A stretch of 64,000 bases of DNA, taken from NCBI GenBank assembly GCA_036271315.1, contig DATBAV010000042.1:47256-111255 (forward strand), written 5' to 3'. Positions 8,246-60,336 of the stretch are shown here, one piece after another (the first letter of the stretch is position 1; every line of letters begins with the position of its first letter). This DNA comes from Solirubrobacterales bacterium. Lineage in GTDB: Bacteria; Actinomycetota; Thermoleophilia; Solirubrobacterales; 70-9. The position numbers and the translations under genes are program-made. Below the pieces are notes generated by a model. That model was not told the origin of the DNA, did not search any database, and worked only from the letters and a program-made list of their open reading frames with translations.

Positions 8246-8349
8246 GAGGGGTCGTGTGCCCCTCTCACAGAGGCTTGGCGACCACATCCCAAATCGCCCA
8301 AGACGATCTGCTGCGCAACGGCCTCTGAGAGAGGGGCACACGACCCCTC
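8246..8349. repeat. 104-nt dyad element with 29-nt inverted arms (28/29 complementary); each arm is itself a hairpin
   Basis: GAGGGGTCGTGTGCCCCTCTCACAGAGGC (8246-8274) pairs with GCCTCTGAGAGAGGGGCACACGACCCCTC (8321-8349). Each arm contains GAGGGG-N7-CCCCTC. Confidence 0.8.
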
Positions 8350-8973: not shown

Positions 8974-9046
8974 TCCGGGGTGGTGTAATCGGCCAGCACG
9001 CTTGGTTTTGGTCCAAGAAGAGAGGGTTCGAGTCCTTCCCCCGGAA
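8974..9046 (+). tRNA. tRNA-Gln (anticodon UUG)
   Basis: Hand-folded cloverleaf. Acceptor stem is TCCGGGG/CCCCGGA and D stem is GTGT/GCAC. Anticodon stem is CTTGG/CCAAG with loop TTTTGGT. T arm is GAGGG-TTCGAGT-CCTTC. Total 73 nt with no encoded CCA. Confidence 0.9.
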
Positions 9047-10659: not shown

Positions 10660-12133
10660 TCTGCCGTACCGTCGTGACGGTCAGCGCCACGGCCGCGCAA
10701 AGCGAGAAGGACGCGGCGCCCAGCGCCCAGCCGGCGCTGACGTCGCTGAGGTAGTGAACACTGAGATAGACCCGCGAGAGACCGACCAGAGCGGTGAGGG
10801 CGATGCCGGCGATCACGACGAGCGCGCCGCGCGCCATGCCGGGCCGCAACCGCATCACGATCGTCACCGCCAGCCAGACGTAGAAGGTCGAGTAGGCGGC
10901 GTGGGCGCTGGGAAAGGAGGAGCCGGAGACGCCGATCAGGCCGTCGCCGGGCCGCGGCCGGTCGACCGCGTCCTTGATCTCGTGCACGCCGACGAAGATC
11001 AGCACAACGCCGCCGAGCAGGACGCCGAGCTCGGCCCAGCGCCGGCGCGCGATCAGCAGCACCGCGGCGACGAAAGCGAGTGAGCCGGTGAGTGCGCTGG
11101 AGCCCAGGTGGGTGAACACCTTGGCGAAGTGGGTCAGCCAGGCCGCCTGCAGCTTTTCGGCGATTTCGATCGCCGTGTTGTCGCCGGGAGTCGGGCCCGG
11201 TTCGCCATTGACGATCACCGTGTAGGCGACGAGGACGAAGAGGGCAACGGCGAAGACCGCCATCAGCGAGGTGAACTCGAGCCCGAAGGTGCCGCCCGGC
11301 GTCACCCGCTCCCAGAGGAACTGCAGCTGCGGGTGGAAGCGACGCGTAAGCACGACCAGCCAGCGAGTCGCCGCGTGCTGCTCCATCCAGGCCACGACCC
11401 GGCGCCTGTTCTCCTCGACCCGCAGGAAGCGGACCGCGGTGACGACGACGACGATCACGACGATCGTCGTCGCCAGCACGAAGGCGCCGCGGCCGGCGTA
11501 CTTGGCGGCGCTCTCGATGCTGCGCGAGAAGAAGTAGCCGACCAGGATGTGGGCGCTGGCCCAGAGCCCGGTGCCGAGGATGCTGTAGGGGACAAAGGCG
11601 CGGTAGCGCATGCCCGAGCTACCGGCGATGAAGGGGGCGAAGGCGCGCACGAGGCTGATGAAGCGGCCGATGAAGATCGTCTTGCCGCCGTGGCGGGAGA
11701 AGTAGTCCTCGACCCTTTCGAAGCGCTCGTGGCCAATGCCGAAGCGGGGGCCGTTTTTGAGCACGAACTCGCGGCCGAGGCGGCGGCCGATGAAGAAGCT
11801 GGTCGTGTCGCCGAGCCAGGCCGAGAACCAGGCAATCGCGATCAGCAGGTAGATGTCGATCGCGCCCTGCCCGGCGACGGCGCCGCCGAGCAGCATCACG
11901 GTCTCGCCGGGGACGATGAGGCCGACGAAGGCGCCGGTCTCGGCGAAGGCGAAGGCGCCGACGATCAGGTAGGTCCAGGCGCCGAGCGCGTTGGAGAGGT
12001 CTTCGAGCAGGCTCTGCAGGTCGAGGTGGCCGAGCTGGCGGCTGATCAGGTAGTAGCCACCGGCGACGACCAAGACCGCGACCGCGATCAGCAGGCGTTT
12101 GCGGTTGCCGCCCCCCTCGCCCGGAAGCTTCAC
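10613..12133 (-). CDS. DedA (SNARE-associated) domain fused to PAP2 phosphatase domain membrane protein
   Basis: The N-terminal half is DedA-like (ETGAFVGLIVPGET..., FIGRFISLVRAFAPFIAG). The C-terminal half has the PAP2 motifs KDAVDRPRP, PSAH and SRVYLSVHYLSD. Confidence 0.9.
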   Translation of the reverse strand: MKLPGEGGGNRKRLLIAVAVLVVAGGYYLISRQLGHLDLQSLLEDLSNALGAWTYLIVGAFAFAETGAFVGLIVPGETVMLLGGAVAGQGAIDIYLLIAIAWFSAWLGDTTSFFIGRRLGREFVLKNGPRFGIGHERFERVEDYFSRHGGKTIFIGRFISLVRAFAPFIAGSSGMRYRAFVPYSILGTGLWASAHILVGYFFSRSIESAAKYAGRGAFVLATTIVVIVVVVTAVRFLRVEENRRRVVAWMEQHAATRWLVVLTRRFHPQLQFLWERVTPGGTFGLEFTSLMAVFAVALFVLVAYTVIVNGEPGPTPGDNTAIEIAEKLQAAWLTHFAKVFTHLGSSALTGSLAFVAAVLLIARRRWAELGVLLGGVVLIFVGVHEIKDAVDRPRPGDGLIGVSGSSFPSAHAAYSTFYVWLAVTIVMRLRPGMARGALVVIAGIALTALVGLSRVYLSVHYLSDVSAGWALGAASFSLCAAVALTVTTVRQNGRGVVATSAAEDRE

Positions 12134-12984
12134 GCCGCGAGCCCCGGTTTCGCGCTCGGCGCCTGACCGGCCTCGCAGACGATCGCATCGTCGCGGGCGA
12201 GTGCCTCCGCCGCCTCCCGGGCCGCCGCCAGGCTCTCGAAGAGCCCGAAAGCGGTGGGGCCGGAGCCGGTGAGCAGCGCGTGCGGTGCGCCGGCATCGCG
12301 CAGGGCGTCGAGGGCGGCCCCGATATCCGGCCGCAGCGAGCGCGCCGCCGGCTCGAGGTCGTTGACGAGCAGCTCCGGGTAGGCGAGCGGCGAGGCGCCC
12401 GCCCCGGCCACAGAGCGCAGGCGCCCCTCCAGCCCCTCCAGCTCCTCGCTACCGCGGCCGAGTCCGAGGCGATCCGCCTCGGCGAAGACGTCAGCGGTGT
12501 CGAGTCCGCCGCCGCCGGGCAGCAGGACCACCGCGTGCGGTTTTGGCTCAGGCAGATGCTCGACGCTCTCCCCCGCCCCCCGCACCAGGGAAAGGGCCGG
12601 CGTCAGCTGCGAGGGCACGTCGGCACCGAGCGCGGCGGCGATCCGCTCCAAGTCGGCGATCTCGCCGGCCGCGAGCCGCAGCACCGCGGCGGCGTCGGCG
12701 CTGCCGCCGCCGAGGCCGGCGGCGACCGGCGTCCTCTTCTCGATCTCGATCCGCAACGGCGGGCTCCCCCAACCGTGCTCGCGCAGCGCCTGCAACGCTT
12801 GCAGCGCCAGGTTCTCGCCCTCGACCCCCGCGCAGATCACCTCGTCCTCGGCTGCCTCGCTCACCTCGATCAGGTCGCCGAGCGCCAGCGGCTCGAACAG
12901 CGAGCAGAGCTCGTGCAGGCCGTCGGCGCGGCGGGCGCCGAGGTAGAGACAGAGGTTGAGCTTGGCCGGAGCAGAGATCCGCAA
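12130..12984 (-). CDS. ispE: 4-diphosphocytidyl-2-C-methyl-D-erythritol kinase
   Basis: GHMP-kinase motif PVAAGLGGGSADAAA and N-terminus RISAPAKLNL. The TTG start at 12984 directly abuts the repeat element. Confidence 0.9.
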   Translation of the reverse strand: MRISAPAKLNLCLYLGARRADGLHELCSLFEPLALGDLIEVSEAAEDEVICAGVEGENLALQALQALREHGWGSPPLRIEIEKRTPVAAGLGGGSADAAAVLRLAAGEIADLERIAAALGADVPSQLTPALSLVRGAGESVEHLPEPKPHAVVLLPGGGGLDTADVFAEADRLGLGRGSEELEGLEGRLRSVAGAGASPLAYPELLVNDLEPAARSLRPDIGAALDALRDAGAPHALLTGSGPTAFGLFESLAAAREAAEALARDDAIVCEAGQAPSAKPGLAA

Positions 12985-13099
12985 GGGGCCTATCCCGGTA
13001 GGGGTTCCACTTAACTTTTTCGGTCGAGTGGAAGTTGTCTACCGTGGGCGGGGTTGGCGAAAAAGTACAAGACGTTCCACCCCTACCGGGATAGGCCCC
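12985..13099. repeat. structured palindromic element, family 1, copy 1 (115 nt)
   Basis: 20-bp perfect outer stem GGGGCCTATCCCGGTAGGGG/CCCCTACCGGGATAGGCCCC around the conserved core TTCCACTTAACTTTTTCG-N35-CGAAAAAGTACAAGACGTTCCA. The same core occurs at 16676-16795 and 54989-55108. Confidence 0.85.
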
Positions 13100-13841
13100 T
13101 GGCCAATGCTCGGAACTCGTTGGGAGAGAGTTGCTCGGCGCGGCTGTCCGCTGGCAGTCCGAGCGCCTCGAGCGCAGATCTGATCGCCTCCATCGAGCCC
13201 GGCCGCACATGCTCGACCGAGCGCGCCAGCGCCTTGCGACGGTGGGCGAAGGCCGCCCGGACCAGCTCGCGCGTCGCCTGGTCGGCGCCCGGGCCGGTGC
13301 GGCGCAGAGCGAGGATCGCCGAGTCCACCCGCGGCCGTGGGCGGAAGACGGCCGGGTCGACCTTGCGCAGCAGGCGCACCTCGCAGGCGAGCTGGGCGAG
13401 CACGCTCGGCGACCCGTAGGTGCGGTTGCCCGGCGCCGCGCGCAGCCGGTCGGCGATCTCGCGCTGCACCATCACGGTCCACGAACGCAGCGAGGGCAGC
13501 TGCTCGATCGTGCGCAGGATCACCGGGGTCGCCACCGAGTAGGGGAGGTTGGAGACGACCACCGTCGGCACCGGCCGCAGGGCGCCGAGGTCGATCCGCA
13601 TCGCATCCGCCCAATGCAGGCTGACGTTGGGTCGGGCGGCCAGGGGCTCGAGCGCCTCGGCCAGGCCCCGATCGAGCTCGACCGAGTGCAGGTGGGCAAC
13701 GACCTCGGCGAGCCGTTCGCTCAGCACCCCTTCCCCCGCACCGACCTCGAGCACCACGTCGTCGGGGCGCAGCTCGGCGTCGCGGACGATCGCGTCGAGC
13801 AGGTTCGGGTCGGAGAGGAAGTTCTGCCCGAGGCGGACCAC
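13083..13841 (-). CDS. rsmA: 16S rRNA (adenine1518/1519-N6)-dimethyltransferase
   Basis: RLGQNFL motif and SAM-binding VLEVGAGEGVLS. The final codons and the TAG lie inside the repeat arm. Confidence 0.95.
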   Translation of the reverse strand: MVRLGQNFLSDPNLLDAIVRDAELRPDDVVLEVGAGEGVLSERLAEVVAHLHSVELDRGLAEALEPLAARPNVSLHWADAMRIDLGALRPVPTVVVSNLPYSVATPVILRTIEQLPSLRSWTVMVQREIADRLRAAPGNRTYGSPSVLAQLACEVRLLRKVDPAVFRPRPRVDSAILALRRTGPGADQATRELVRAAFAHRRKALARSVEHVRPGSMEAIRSALEALGLPADSRAEQLSPNEFRALARGLSR

Positions 13842-15518: not shown

Positions 15519-16694
15519 GTGGCCGACTTCGCCGACTACTACCGCCAGATCTATGTCCTCGGCCTCGGCGGGGAGACCCCGAGCGTGCCCGTCTCTGTCG
15601 CCGAACTGGAGCGCCTCGCCGCCGAGACGATGGACGAGCGCGCCGCCAACTACGTATTTGCCGGCGCCGGCAGCGAGGGCACGATGGACGCCAACCGCGA
15701 GGCCTTCCGGCGGCGGCAGATCGTGCCGCGGATGCTGCGCGACGTCTCCTCGCGCGATCTCTCAACCTCCCTGCTGGGCACGGCGATGCCGGCACCGCTG
15801 CTGCTGGCGCCGATCGGGGTGCAGAAGGTCGTCCACCCCGACGGCGAGCTTGCAACCGCCCGGGCGGCGGCGGCCCTCGGCCTACCGATGATCGCCAGCA
15901 CCAACTCCCACTTCACGCTCGAGGAGATCGCCGAGGCGGGCGGTGACGCGCCGCGCTGGTTCCAGCTCTACTGGCCCAACGACCGCGCCATCGCCGCCAG
16001 CTTCGTCGGCCGCGCCGAGTCGGCCGGCTACGGGGCGATCGTGCTCACCGTCGACACCTTCGTCCCGGGTTGGAAGCCGCGTGACCTGCAGCAGGCCTGG
16101 CTGCCCTTCCTCAACGGCATGGGGGTCGCCAACTACTTCCAGGACCCGGTCTTCCGCGAAGGCCTCGAGAAGCCGCCGGAGGAGGACGTCGGCGGCGCCA
16201 CCGGCCACTTCCTCGGCGTCCAGGCCAACCCCGCGCTGAGCTGGGACGACCTCGCTTGGCTACGCGAGCAGACCGAGTTGCCGATCGTGATCAAGGGGAT
16301 CCAGCACCCCGACGACGCACGCGAGGCGGCGGCCCGCGGCATCGACGGCGTGATCGTCTCCAACCACGGCGGCCGCCAGGTCGACGGCGCGATCGGCGCG
16401 CTGGACGTACTGCCGGCGATCGCCGAGGCTGCCGACGACGAGCTCGCGGTCCTCTTCGACAGCGGCGTGCGCAGCGGCAGCGACGCGATCAAGGCGCTCG
16501 CCCTCGGCGCCGACGCCGTCTGCCTCGGCCGCCCCTATATCTGGGGCCTCGCCCTGGAGGGTCAACAGGGAGTCGAAACCGTGCTCAAGATGGTGCTGGC
16601 CGAGCTCGACCTGACGCTGGCGCTCTGTGGGTACACCGAGCCCAGCCAACTGGGCCCGGACGCGCTCTCTGAGACCCCGGACCTATCCCGGTAG
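15519..16694 (+). CDS. FMN-dependent alpha-hydroxy-acid oxidase/dehydrogenase (lactate 2-monooxygenase/L-lactate oxidase-like)
   Basis: Motif VSNHGGRQ and TIM-barrel FMN family features. GTG start, 391 aa. The last codons and TAG are encoded by repeat copy 2. Confidence 0.88.
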   Translation: MADFADYYRQIYVLGLGGETPSVPVSVAELERLAAETMDERAANYVFAGAGSEGTMDANREAFRRRQIVPRMLRDVSSRDLSTSLLGTAMPAPLLLAPIGVQKVVHPDGELATARAAAALGLPMIASTNSHFTLEEIAEAGGDAPRWFQLYWPNDRAIAASFVGRAESAGYGAIVLTVDTFVPGWKPRDLQQAWLPFLNGMGVANYFQDPVFREGLEKPPEEDVGGATGHFLGVQANPALSWDDLAWLREQTELPIVIKGIQHPDDAREAAARGIDGVIVSNHGGRQVDGAIGALDVLPAIAEAADDELAVLFDSGVRSGSDAIKALALGADAVCLGRPYIWGLALEGQQGVETVLKMVLAELDLTLALCGYTEPSQLGPDALSETPDLSR

Positions 16695-16795
16695 GGGTTT
16701 CACTTAACTTTTTGGGTGGGGACGGGGTTGCTGGCGCCACTGGGTTGGCGGCCAAAAAGCACAAGACGTTTCACCCCTACCGGGATAGGTCCGGG
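16676..16795. repeat. structured palindromic element, family 1, copy 2 (120 nt)
   Basis: 22-bp perfect outer stem CCCGGACCTATCCCGGTAGGGG/CCCCTACCGGGATAGGTCCGGG. The core is TTTCACTTAACTTTTTGG-N36-CCAAAAAGCACAAGACGTTTCA. Confidence 0.85.
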
Positions 16796-48716: not shown

Positions 48717-48743
48717 CGCCTGAGACTTCGCGCTTTGCTGAAC

Positions 48744-48780
48744 AAAGCCGGCCCCCGAATCGGGGGCCGGCTTTTTCTTT
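48744..48780. terminator. bidirectional rho-independent terminator between the wHTH gene and mdh
   Basis: AAAGCCGGCCCCC-GAATC-GGGGGCCGGCTTTTTCTTT has a 10-bp GC stem with an A-tract upstream and a T-tract downstream. Confidence 0.85.
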
Positions 48781-53751: not shown

Positions 53752-53813
53752 GCCGCCGGGAGTTCCCTGTCAGGAACTCCCGCGAAGCGGCCTGACAAGG
53801 AACCCCCGGCGGC
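53752..53813. terminator. nested hairpins between convergent genes (probable bidirectional, I-shaped terminator)
   Basis: CGGGAGTTCC-ctgtca-GGAACTCCCG (53757-53782) is a 10-bp perfect stem. An outer pair GCCGCCGGG/CCCGGCGGC is also present. There is no clear U-tract. Confidence 0.5.
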
Positions 53814-54974
53814 TCACGTCGACTGGTCGCGTAGCGCTCGTCCTACCTGCTCGGCGGTGATCACGCCCGAAAGGCGACCGTCGGCGTCGACCGCCATCAA
53901 GGCACCGAAGCGCCTCAGCGCCCCGCTAGTGAGCAGCGAATCGAGTGGAGCGTCGTCGCGCACCTGGAAGGTGCCGTCGTTGTGCTCGAGCAGATCGGAG
54001 ACGTGCCAGCTCGTGCGCGAGGTCTCGGGAACCTCATCCGCTTTGTCGCGGACGACGAGTCCGAGGAAGTGGTGGGCGGCATCGACCACCGGGAACCAGG
54101 GCCAGCGATAGCGGAGGAAGTATTCGTCCAGCGCCTGCTCGACGCTCAACTCATCGAGGATCGTCACCGGCTGGCGGTCCATCACGTCGGAGACCTGGAG
54201 GCTGCTGATCTTGCCGGTGATCCGCGTCTGCACTGAAGCGGCCTTGGCGGAGCCGTTGATCACGAAGCCGATCAGGGCAAGCCATACCCCGCTGAAGGCG
54301 TCGCCGACGCCGATCAGCACCAGCCCGCCGCCGATGAAGATGTAGCCGAAGACGCGGCCGAGGTTGGCGGCGAAGCGGGTTGCCGAGTTGCGGTCGCCGG
54401 TGCGCCACCAGGCGATCGCGCGGACGATCCGGCCACCGTCCATCGGGAAGGCCGGCAGGAGGTTGAAGATGAGCACGGCCGCGTTGATCCAAGCCAGCCA
54501 GCCGACCACCGCCATCGCTCCCGAGACGCCGGAGCCGGATTCGATCTCCACGGCGCGCTTGAACTCCTCCGGCCCGACCGCGGCCAGGCCCACTGCCGTA
54601 AGCACGATGACGATGGCAAGCGTCACCAGCGGGCCCGCGACCGCCACCTTGAACTCGGCCGCGGGGCTGGGGGACTCGCGATCCATCCGCGCCATGCCGC
54701 CGAAGATCCAGAGCTGGATGCTGGAGATGCCGATGCCGTTGCGCTGGGCGGCAAAGGCGTGGCCGAGCTCGTGCAGGACGATCGAGCCGAAGAAGGCGAG
54801 AGCGCTGATCACCGCCAGCACGAAGGCCGTCGAGCTGGAGCTGCTCTCGCCGAGCACGTCGCCGTAGAAGCTCGACAGCCAGAGGATCACCAGGAAGAGG
54901 ATCAGGAACCACGACCAGTCGACTGTGATGCGGATGCCGCGGACGTGGAACAGGGTTATCGGTTTGCCGCCCAT
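53814..54974 (-). CDS. site-2 protease (M50) family metalloprotease with C-terminal CBS pair
   Basis: HELGH motif (VLHELGHAFAA) and multiple TM helices. The start was moved to ATG 54974 (MGGKPITLFHV...); the track start 55016 lies inside repeat copy 3. Confidence 0.9.
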   Translation of the reverse strand: MGGKPITLFHVRGIRITVDWSWFLILFLVILWLSSFYGDVLGESSSSSTAFVLAVISALAFFGSIVLHELGHAFAAQRNGIGISSIQLWIFGGMARMDRESPSPAAEFKVAVAGPLVTLAIVIVLTAVGLAAVGPEEFKRAVEIESGSGVSGAMAVVGWLAWINAAVLIFNLLPAFPMDGGRIVRAIAWWRTGDRNSATRFAANLGRVFGYIFIGGGLVLIGVGDAFSGVWLALIGFVINGSAKAASVQTRITGKISSLQVSDVMDRQPVTILDELSVEQALDEYFLRYRWPWFPVVDAAHHFLGLVVRDKADEVPETSRTSWHVSDLLEHNDGTFQVRDDAPLDSLLTSGALRRFGALMAVDADGRLSGVITAEQVGRALRDQST

Positions 54975-54988
54975 CACAGGTCCAATCG

Positions 54989-55108
54989 TACGTGGCCGTC
55001 CAGGCGGGGGTTCCACTTAACTTTTTCGGTGGGGCGTGGTTGGGCTGGCGCCTAAAGCTCCCGACGAAAAAGTGCAAGACGTTCCACCCCCGCCTGGACG
55101 GCCACGTA
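54989..55108. repeat. structured palindromic element, family 1, copy 3 (120 nt)
   Basis: 22-bp perfect outer stem TACGTGGCCGTCCAGGCGGGGG/CCCCCGCCTGGACGGCCACGTA. The core is TTCCACTTAACTTTTTCG-N36-CGAAAAAGTGCAAGACGTTCCA. Confidence 0.85.
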
Positions 55109-59220: not shown

Positions 59221-60125
59221 GCGAGCAGATCAAGGTCGCCTACTGGCCCGGCTGCGTCTCGCGCGGCTTCACCACCGAGCTGCACGGCTCGATGGCGATC
59301 GCCGCCCAGAAGCTCGACATCGAGTTGGTCGAACTCGACCGCGCCAACTGCTGCGGCGCCGGCGTCATCGCCGAGCACAACCAGGAGCTGGCCGACACGC
59401 TCAACGCCCGCACCTTCGCCCTCGCTCAGCAGACCGGCCTCTCGATGATGAACATCTGCTCGACCTGCCAGGGCGCGCAGTCGGAGTGCCAGCAACGACT
59501 CGACGCCGACTCCTCCTACCGCGCCCACATCAACGAGGTGCTGAGCGGCCAGGGCCTCTCCTACGAGAAGGGCAAGGACGGCTTCACCAACAAGAACTTC
59601 CTCTGGTTGCTGGTCGAGGACTACGGCCTCGACCGCCTCGCCGAGAAGGTGACGCGCCCGCTCAGCGGCCTGCGCGTAGGCCCCTTCTACGGCTGCTATG
59701 TGGTCCGCCCCAAGGAGCGGCTCGGCTACGACGAGTTCCCCGAACGCGATCTCTACCTGGAGAAGGTGATCGAGGCGCTCGGCGGCGAGGTCGTCGAGTA
59801 CGACGGCGCCCGCAAGTGCTGCGGCTTTCCCGTGATCACGATGAACCGCGACACCTCGCTGCGCCAGGCCGGCACCCACGTCGGCGACGCGCTCGACGCC
59901 GGCGCCGACTGCCTCGTCACCCCCTGCCCCCTCTGTCACCTCAACCTCGACATGCAGCAGCCCGAGGCGGCCAAGGTGGTCAATAGGGACTTGGGCCTCG
60001 CGGTCCTGCATCTCCCCCAGCTCGTCTCGCTCGCCCTCGGCGCCTCGCCGAAGGAACTGGGGATGAGCAAGCACATCGCTTCGACCAAGTGGGTTGAAGA
60101 GCGGCTTGCTGCGGTTCCTGCCTGA
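59217..60125 (+). CDS. HdrB-like CCG-domain protein (SdhE-type subunit of non-classical succinate:quinone oxidoreductase)
   Basis: Two Cys-rich CCG-type motifs (WPGCVSR...ANCCGAG and FYGCY...RKCCGFP). It overlaps sdhB by 4 nt. 302 aa. Confidence 0.85.
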
Positions 60126-60145
60126 TTCGCTGACCTGAACGGGGT

Positions 60146-60213
60146 GAGCGCGTGCGCAGGGGTCTGCGGACGCGCTTCGCGCTGAGTGTCCGCAGACCCC
60201 TGCGCACGCGCTC
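60146..60213. repeat. 26-bp perfect inverted repeat (hairpin, 16-nt loop) just downstream of the sdh operon; possible terminator or REP-like element
   Basis: GAGCGCGTGCGCAGGGGTCTGCGGAC (60146-60171) pairs with GTCCGCAGACCCCTGCGCACGCGCTC (60188-60213). Confidence 0.75.
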
Positions 60214-60336
60214 TTCTCGATTCGGAGAGCAGATCAAGCAGGATCAGCTCCAAGAAGTCCATCCACTCTGTCTCGAAAGCTCAAGGCTCTGGGACTTCGG
60301 CGAGCTCGGCACCTTGGAGCGAACCTCAGTCGGAGG

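Follow-up and report, generated by a model that had tools for sequence, protein, structure and literature searches.

Small palindromic dispersed repeats form a known broad class of sequences, and several described systems come close to the element reported here. REP sequences and REPINs are kept long-term within a lineage, and their proximity to stop codons affects translation and mRNA stability. Correia (CREE) hairpins are processed by RNase III and affect gene expression. A stem, an internal loop and a bulge make up the architecture of attC sites and of IS200/IS605-type hairpins; attC sites also possess R''/R' core sites (RYYYAAC...GTTRRRY), lie in cassette arrays of one orientation and have intI nearby. 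The traits of ERIC/IRU-type repeats are in part established knowledge. According to PMC3184786 and PMC2759123, ERIC/IRU, RU-1/2/3 and YPAL are imperfect palindromes of about 100-170 nt, present in many copies and in either orientation in transcribed intergenic DNA, which form long RNA hairpins, overlap or extend ORFs, have no transposase of their own and are polymorphic in presence or absence between strains. The IS1031 group (IS5 family) is described in PMC1676026 and PMC2516522 as using a TNA target with a 3-bp duplication.

The element described here, Family-1, was found in a 64,000-nt stretch of Solirubrobacterales DNA (the window, at its full length), and it is like the ERIC/IRU-type repeats in all the traits just listed. 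It differs from them in sequence, to which theirs bears no similarity, and in its host phylum, the high-GC Actinomycetota; its middle is asymmetric, AT-rich and strictly conserved, its inner stem is of the T5/A5 kind, stop codons are built into its edges, and its distal arms vary yet stay perfectly complementary. With the MITEs of the IS1031 group it has in common a small size, many copies, inverted ends of a "GAG"-like type, a frequent TNA just beyond either end and the existence of empty sites. On the other hand, its TNAs are not matching duplications, a parent IS was not found in about 1 Mb of loci, and its arms are not a fixed sequence to which a transposase would bind but covary from copy to copy. 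Its ends (consensus RRRSC, also given as G-R-R-C-C, with GRRCCNATCCCGGYAGGGG as the Family-1-type end sequence) and TNA flank were compared by description with the literature signature of TNA, 3-bp duplication and GAG ends, and they would by analogy resemble the target and ends of the IS1031 group.

REP and REPIN units, too, are dispersed, form hairpins, measure about 100 nt, lie at gene ends and carry GTAG/CTAC in their inverted arms, but the arms of Family-1 are not conserved REP hairpins, there is no GTAG-tagged palindrome unit of 20-40 nt, and it is the middle, not the arms, that is conserved. Correia elements are similar in length (about 100-150 nt), in their inverted ends, in being co-transcribed and hairpin-forming and in altering gene ends, yet neither their fixed 26-bp terminal inverted repeats, nor the TA duplication, nor the promoter and IHF sites were seen in Family-1. 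As for integron attC sites, ACTTAAC is present in the element but its partner GTTAAGT is absent, and the copies are dispersed in both orientations. No T-run follows either arm, while the intrinsic terminator at 48742-48776 of the window has one.

Family-1 looks like a previously undescribed member of this class. We consider it reasonably probable that it is a new, Solirubrobacterales-restricted family of small non-autonomous palindromic dispersed repeats of MITE/ERIC-like character, of which the copy at the rsmA-ispE junction is a member. The likeness to ERIC, Correia, REPIN and MITE elements is drawn because its copies are short, non-coding and numerous, lie at gene ends in both orientations, are polymorphic, and decay and are replaced. 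On the best reading, the element is not a unique regulatory RNA and behaves as a small non-autonomous mobile element.

The element at the rsmA-ispE junction and its relatives

Copy 1 (12985-13099, plus strand; 120.6 bits with the covariance model) reads GGGGCCTATCCCGGTAGGGG / TTCCACTTAA / CTTTTTCG / 35 nt / CGAAAAAG / TACAAGACGTTCCA / CCCCTACCGGGATAGGCCCC, that is 20 + 10 + 8 + 35 + 8 + 14 + 20 nt. This is precisely the anatomy given in a preliminary description of the locus, which had claimed an inner stem and perfectly complementary 20-nt ends. The left outer arm (12985-13004, +) pairs throughout with the right one (13080-13099, +), and A12984/T13100 adds further pairing. Between the arms lie the left AT-rich conserved core TTCCACTTAA with the 5' half of the inner stem, CTTTTTCG (13005-13022, +), then the variable apical part of 35 nt (13023-13057, +), of a type common to the orthologous copies in loci L023, L029 and L122, and finally the 3' half of the inner stem, CGAAAAAG, which pairs with CTTTTTCG, followed by the right conserved core TACAAGACGTTCCA (13058-13079, +).

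The orientation of Family-1 was set by the left core GGGGTTCCACTTAAC; by this convention copy 1 is antisense to both neighbouring genes, so the mRNA carries the reverse complement of the element. The upstream gene is rsmA (ksgA; 13083-13841, minus strand; TIGR00755, 229 bits against a curated cutoff of 171). Its protein ends in ...ARGLSR*, and the final four codons and the stop come from copy 1: read on the minus strand, the right arm supplies the codons G-L-S-R and the TAG (13085-13083). The downstream gene, ispE (12130-12984, minus strand), begins with a TTG (12984-12982) which touches the left arm, i.e. the 3' arm in the mRNA, and which is aligned with the ATG of ispE in relatives. The ORF coordinates bear out the earlier statement that the element overlaps the rsmA stop, abuts the ispE start and fills the spacer.

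Two further copies had been claimed in the window, and both were found where they had been placed, each with perfect 22-bp arms and a score of 112-121 bits with the covariance model. Copy 2 (16676-16795, +) lies between convergent genes; an FMN-dependent dehydrogenase gene (15519-16694, +) has its TAG (16692-16694) in the left arm, and the protein ends in ...PDLSR*. Copy 3 (54989-55108, +) lies between divergent genes whose ATG starts, at 54974 (-) and 55122 (+), are 14 and 13 nt from the arms, and its arm sequence is unlike that of copies 1 and 2, yet fully complementary. All three window copies share one orientation. When up to three mismatches are allowed, each core has three occurrences in the window, where 0.03 would be expected for the left one and 0.00 for the right. 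Scanned with the covariance model and no filters, the window gave these three as its only real copies (112-121 bits); the weaker hits are unrelated hairpins. Folding z-scores against shuffles range from -6.2 to -9.6 on either strand. The AT-rich core had been called a compositional outlier, and direct counting agrees: both conserved cores have about 40% GC and the elements 57-62%, against 67.8% for the window.

Other palindromes are present in the window. A near-perfect inverted repeat at 8246-8349, unrelated to Family-1, has 29-nt arms (97% complementary) and a 46-nt spacer, with a tRNA gene (8974-9046, +) nearby. An imperfect palindrome at 60105-60254 has 67-nt arms (78% complementary) and a perfect G+C-rich centre, GCGCGTGCGCAGGGGTCTGCGGAC...GTCCGCAGACCCCTGCGCACGCGC. 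A structured palindrome, GCCGCCGGGAGTTCCCTGTCAGGAACTCCCGCG...GGAACCCCCGGCGGC, occupies 53754-53811, just downstream of the gene at 53814-54974 (-).

The wider family was sought with an exact 19-mer of the left core in one genome per prokaryotic species. Among the matches listed there are at least 121 copies in at least 119 loci, from about 90 species-level genomes of Solirubrobacterales/Thermoleophilia, and nearly all listed loci belong to metagenome-assembled genomes of these groups. In the 121 listed copies the total length is 115-125 nt (about 118) and the middle is 71-80 nt long (mode 75); the outer stems mostly have 19-22 bp, with an overall range of 17-26 bp, and are perfect in 80 of the 121. 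About 13 more copies, not seeded by the 19-mer, were recovered with the covariance model in approximately 750 kb of flanking sequence. As the window holds three copies per 64 kb and the flanks hold these unseeded ones, we infer that a copy occurs every 20-60 kb, which for a genome of 2.5-3 Mb makes roughly 50-150. Two contigs bearing Family-1 copies, L029 and L075 (JBLMYD01), are labelled Chloroflexota; they are probably mis-binned Solirubrobacterales DNA, since L029 is syntenic with the rsmA-ispE locus of the window.

The element had not been recognised as belonging to any known family, and this assessment holds. At the Rfam gathering threshold no family matches at the element, and only a tRNA passes in the window; at E<=10 the element itself draws at best miRNA-type hairpins, with 14-27 bits against thresholds of 65-100. 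As all Rfam hits at the element are generic hairpins below threshold, a known RNA family was rejected. A phage or plasmid origin was likewise rejected, with no phage match for a degenerate core pattern in IMG/VR and no plasmid match in PLSDB. In the literature searched, whether for the organisms, for the concept or for the core sequences written out letter by letter, no relevant published description came up, and an exact-protein lookup of the window RsmA gave no match.

Base pairing and covariation

The structure was obtained with RNAalifold and explicit pair counting. The outer stem is G+C-rich and 20-22 bp long in the family; it was resolved as 21 bp, every pair of which covaries. The middle is conserved, asymmetric and AT-rich, and consists in order of a U-A pair, a 3x3 loop in which pyrimidine faces pyrimidine, an A:U and then a C:G pair, a 3-nt GAC bulge, UU:AA and a small loop. 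There follow the inner stem C-U5-NNN / NNN-A5-G, whose NNN covaries, and a variable tip of 25-30 nt, often with a GGC-UGNC-GCC mini-hairpin. Paired cells amount to 97.5% against 85% in shuffles, double changes occur at 24 of 34 pairs, and the covariation score is 0.346 against 0.10 in shuffles and at most 0.058 in controls with slid partners. The distal 8-10 bp of the arms vary between copies, which stay complementary all the same. These distal arms have a consensus of their own, AGRGCCNATCCCGG, and the idea that the variable arms come from insertion into pre-existing palindromes is unsupported for that reason. The preliminary description had made its case depend on compensatory changes and positional bias in further copies; both are present, the former in the outer stem and in the extension of the inner stem.

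It had also pointed to a heptamer, GTTCCAC, repeated directly on both sides of the internal loop. The repeat is real in the window, but the family as a whole does not preserve it, there being variants with TTCCGC as their left and GCTCCAC as their right side. The Y positions are nearly independent, and a left A->G goes with a right T->C: the A:U pair within the "loop" is G:C in seven copies, and single-sided changes are absent. The heptamer is a by-product of this base pair together with the pyrimidine-pyrimidine internal loop, and we rejected it as a selected direct repeat or target duplication.

Covariation of this kind, including a pair inside the "loop", counts in favour of a host-selected cis-acting RNA module that is bound by a protein or an RNase and merely copied around the genome, acting as a 3'-UTR or intercistronic terminator, a stabiliser, an RNase III site or a translational-coupling device. 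The near-invariance of the unpaired core in 109 copies, for whose ascertainment the left core alone was used, would also fit. Nevertheless, we hold such a module to be improbable. There is no enrichment of G-U pairs and no U-tract after the hairpin; in close relatives the cores mutate at the rate of the flanks, and stems lose pairs with no compensating change, one arm of copy 1 in L122 being an example. The unseeded copies include degraded cores, so the apparent invariance in the seeded set is partly a matter of ascertainment. With the left-core ascertainment, the degraded unseeded copies and the flank-like divergence, the notion of strong purifying selection on every old copy is weakened.

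Pairing is almost strictly Watson-Crick; except at the end of the stem, G-U pairs do not outnumber A-C mismatches. The chief mismatch is a C.A at stem position 6, seen in about 17 copies of all apical subtypes and with either strand transcribed; on the opposite strand it is a G.T wobble. The inner stem has the opposite wobble bias (six U.G and no C.A). We attempted to read an RNA strand from these biases, but the outcome is contradictory, the outer stem pointing to the minus strand and the inner stem and tip to the plus strand, and the spectrum of mismatches is not linked to which strand is transcribed. Because the wobble biases oppose each other and G-U is not in excess, covariation does not identify an RNA strand. 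Strict Watson-Crick compensatory changes alone do not prove RNA function; covariation of this sort would be expected of a sequence in which both strands count, and equally of arms that are homogenised by a process acting on the DNA. Templated quasi-palindrome correction by strand switching in replication would be one such homogenising process.

The main rival reading takes the same features for those of a DNA hairpin on which an enzyme of its own, specific for single strands, would act, as a RAYT (Y1 HUH) acts on a REPIN or an integrase on an attC site, with conserved asymmetric loops and a bulge marking the active strand and arms that need complementarity only. This seems to us unlikely, although it has several points in its favour: the strictly Watson-Crick pairing without G-U excess, the independence of the C.A at position 6 (17 copies) from the transcribed strand, the succession of stem, internal loop, short bulged stem and variable tip that resembles attC and IS200/IS605-type hairpins, and the GTAG/CTAC present in the arms. 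Against these stand the opposite wobble bias of the inner stem, arms which are not themselves REP-like hairpins, and the scattering of copies among housekeeping genes with no cassette arrays; nor did a Y1 transposase or an integrase come to notice. Orientation, moreover, does not track local GC skew (65 versus 55 copies), and a tie to replication was unconvincing on the same count.

A conserved scaffold around a hypervariable tip might, finally, suggest a family of independent small RNA genes with a guide-like apical segment of about 30 nt, and the tip does fold slightly better on the plus strand in 78 of 117 copies. We regard this as very improbable: a promoter or terminator signature is absent, copies overlap coding sequence, the mini-hairpin common to many tips means that they are not free sequence, and no associated effector gene was seen.

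Gene ends, empty sites and turnover

Copies of Family-1 lodge in minimal spacers at gene ends, and their built-in stops (the edge TNA, the arm TAG and the core TAA) end the genes that read into them. Gene contexts were called by a GC3/ORF heuristic, not from annotation, for the 101 copies whose flanks were long enough. The neighbours are convergent at 37 of these and divergent at nine; the 35 copies in co-directional settings divide into 24 of one orientation and 11 of the other. Of 162 assignable neighbouring genes, 125 (77%) end at the element, and the search for the core in related genomes, which the preliminary description had called for, yielded at least 121 copies with a strong gene-end bias. 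Stops cluster at -2 to 0 relative to the stem (TNA), at +14 (TAG, in either arm) and at +27 (TAA in CACTTAAC); these positions hold 49 of 73 left-hand and 31 of 52 right-hand stops, about 60% of abutting genes. The core TAA acts on one strand. At a junction found in ten species, whose genes we take from a reading of the sequence to be hemA (upstream) and hemC (downstream), the upstream gene reads through the arm as far as this TAA. In co-directional cases the downstream start lies no more than 21 nt beyond the 3' arm in 30 of 45, and the element is typically the whole spacer.

The strong preference for the 3' ends of genes, and the fact that stops and starts are overlapped, would suit the RNA module discussed above, as would canonical terminators at the same orthologous sites; the two orientations relative to transcription (24 versus 11) and the nine copies between divergent genes would not. 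Such terminators are found at 48742-48776 of the window (compared with L043) and at 2232-2276 of L003. The one in the window, AAAGCCGGCCCCCGAATCGGGGGCCGGCTTTTT, lies between convergent genes, and the orthologous site in L043 has Family-1. A different perfect palindrome, GGGGACGTGCCGCAACTTAGAGGACC...GGTCCCTAAGTTGCGGCACGTCCCC, with arms of about 29 bp, was seen at L061:3473-3534, and L008 has Family-1 at that site.

The edge TNA often coincides with the outermost stem pairs. It is found at arm positions 20-22 in about 30% of ends, and it is present irrespective of whether a gene ends there, which makes it a part of the element or of its target. A clean target duplication is not supported, as the middle bases of the flanking TNAs rarely match (13 of 109, about 12%) and no longer direct repeats were seen; this counts against transposition. 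Judged as a MITE, Family-1 has the small size (115-125 nt, below the limit of 300 bp), the lack of coding capacity and the multiple copies (at least 121) of that class, it is polymorphic for insertion, with empty orthologous sites, and it has terminal inverted repeats in the form of its 17-26-bp arms, but the distal 8-10 bp of these differ between copies, which is atypical. An autonomous parent with the same ends and a transposase was not found in about 1 Mb of loci, nor was a transposase-bearing long version of the element. In the search for an autonomous long version only aberrant copies turned up. One is a truncated copy at L002:1220-1340, with left arm, core and tip intact, which diverges after CGAAAAAGT; there an alcohol-dehydrogenase-like ORF runs through the arm to the core TAA (...HPGRGST*), and small helix-turn-helix-like ORFs lie downstream. 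The other, at L065:3058-3134, is a mini Family-1 that lacks the inner stem and apical part, with GGGGGTTCCGCTTAACTTTTTCGGTACAAGACGCTCCACCCCC between complementary arms.

The element is present or absent between close relatives, is turned over at the same sites and is able to spread as alleles through homologous recombination in the flanks. Comparison of flanks gave 19 orthologous groups, and empty orthologous sites were seen at L092, L120, L058, L014, L019 and window 32045. In 86 of 89 orthologous pairs the two copies point the same way, which fits vertical descent or conversion better than repeated re-insertion. Apical identity is 66% between orthologues, 61% between random pairs and 66% between paralogues of the same genome, and one site may hold different apical subtypes in different lineages. 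As the apical parts of orthologues are scarcely more alike than random ones and subtypes differ at a given site, turnover or conversion between copies is suggested.

The history of copy 1 was traced in a set of 120 relatives of RsmA (78-94% identity) plus the window protein. The "filled" class (46 members) has 252 aa and ends in ...ALA[RK]GLSR*, and the "empty" class (75 members) has 254 aa and ends in ...ALSAKLRxSx*. The small filled clade of the window is nested among empty relatives. L120, with an RsmA 91% identical to that of the window, is without copies 1 and 2 and has an rsmA-ispE spacer of 14 nt, while L122 (93% identical) has both copies. Residues 1-215 of the window RsmA are nearer to the empty class and the last ~35 residues nearer to the filled class, a mosaic that places the end of rsmA (13083-13190) with the filled genes, and the apical sequence of copy 1 matches copies in L023 and L029. 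Judging from this nesting, the mosaic rsmA and the apical match, copy 1 reached its lineage by homologous (allelic) recombination of the locus and not by a fresh insertion. It is the sole traceable acquisition, and its arrival by recombination counts against transposition. The elements of the window and of L122 have diverged to about the same degree as their flanks, and copy 1 of L122 has three uncompensated changes in one arm.

At the copy 2 site L120 has a shorter related palindrome, GGTGCAACGTTTTG...CAAAACGTTGCACC. We also noted a second, shorter palindrome family, GGTGCAACG(T/C)(T/G)TTGTCC...GGACAAAACGTTGCACC, of about 50-60 nt with 17-20-bp arms, at L120:3962-4030, at L121, at positions 748, 820 and 6598 of L042, at L065:5627, at L068:2600 and near 7306 of L036 (reverse strand). 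It shares GGTG.AACG.YTTGT with the minus-strand core of Family-1, and in L120 it sits exactly at the site of the window's copy 2.

A possible mechanism and its meaning

For a mobile repeat family of this kind, the original spread would have been by transposition through a putative enzyme. A further process is needed, because ordinary terminal inverted repeats do not covary; the complementarity of the arms may be kept by templated quasi-palindrome correction, by selection for the hairpin, or by both. Wherever the element is co-transcribed, it would form a hairpin of about 40 bp which could mark or protect mRNA 3' ends, and at operon junctions such as rsmA-ispE this hairpin would sequester the region of the downstream start. 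In the rsmA-ispE mRNA the rsmA UAG lies 14 nt into the 5' arm and the ispE UUG directly after the 3' arm, and the only purine-rich, Shine-Dalgarno-like stretch, GGGAUAGG, is inside the 3' arm. The stem would hold stop and start side by side; a ribosome ending at the stop in the 5' arm would have to open the outer stem, and melting it would expose the ispE start. On this model translation of ispE is predicted to be coupled to that of rsmA. Both 3'-end protection and translational coupling are functions that we infer from the modelled structure.

It is conceivable, if quite doubtful, that the element is instead a domesticated module whose invariant core is read by a dedicated protein, by analogy either with a REPIN/RAYT-like ssDNA system or with an RNA hairpin that joins stop and start. 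The former would be a REPIN/RAYT-like system not previously described in Actinomycetota. In the latter, ribosomes terminating in the 5' arm would unmask the next gene, or re-initiate on it, across an insert of about 118 nt, which would amount to a family-wide coupling device.

For the repeat family that we favour, the meaning lies first in its hosts. The Solirubrobacterales, Actinomycetota of the soil, are abundant and for the most part uncultured, and their genomes are compact. By altering the C-terminal codons of housekeeping genes, taking up the junctions within operons and standing in for terminators, the repeat affects gene calling (of C-termini and start codons), binning and assembly. 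The family is also a clean test provided by nature, and it calls for caution in RNA discovery based on covariation, since a palindromic DNA repeat can have perfect 21-bp "compensatory" covariation without an excess of G-U. The covariance model and the anchor sites are resources for tracing a putative mobilising enzyme. The repeat probably shapes gene expression in these bacteria as well.
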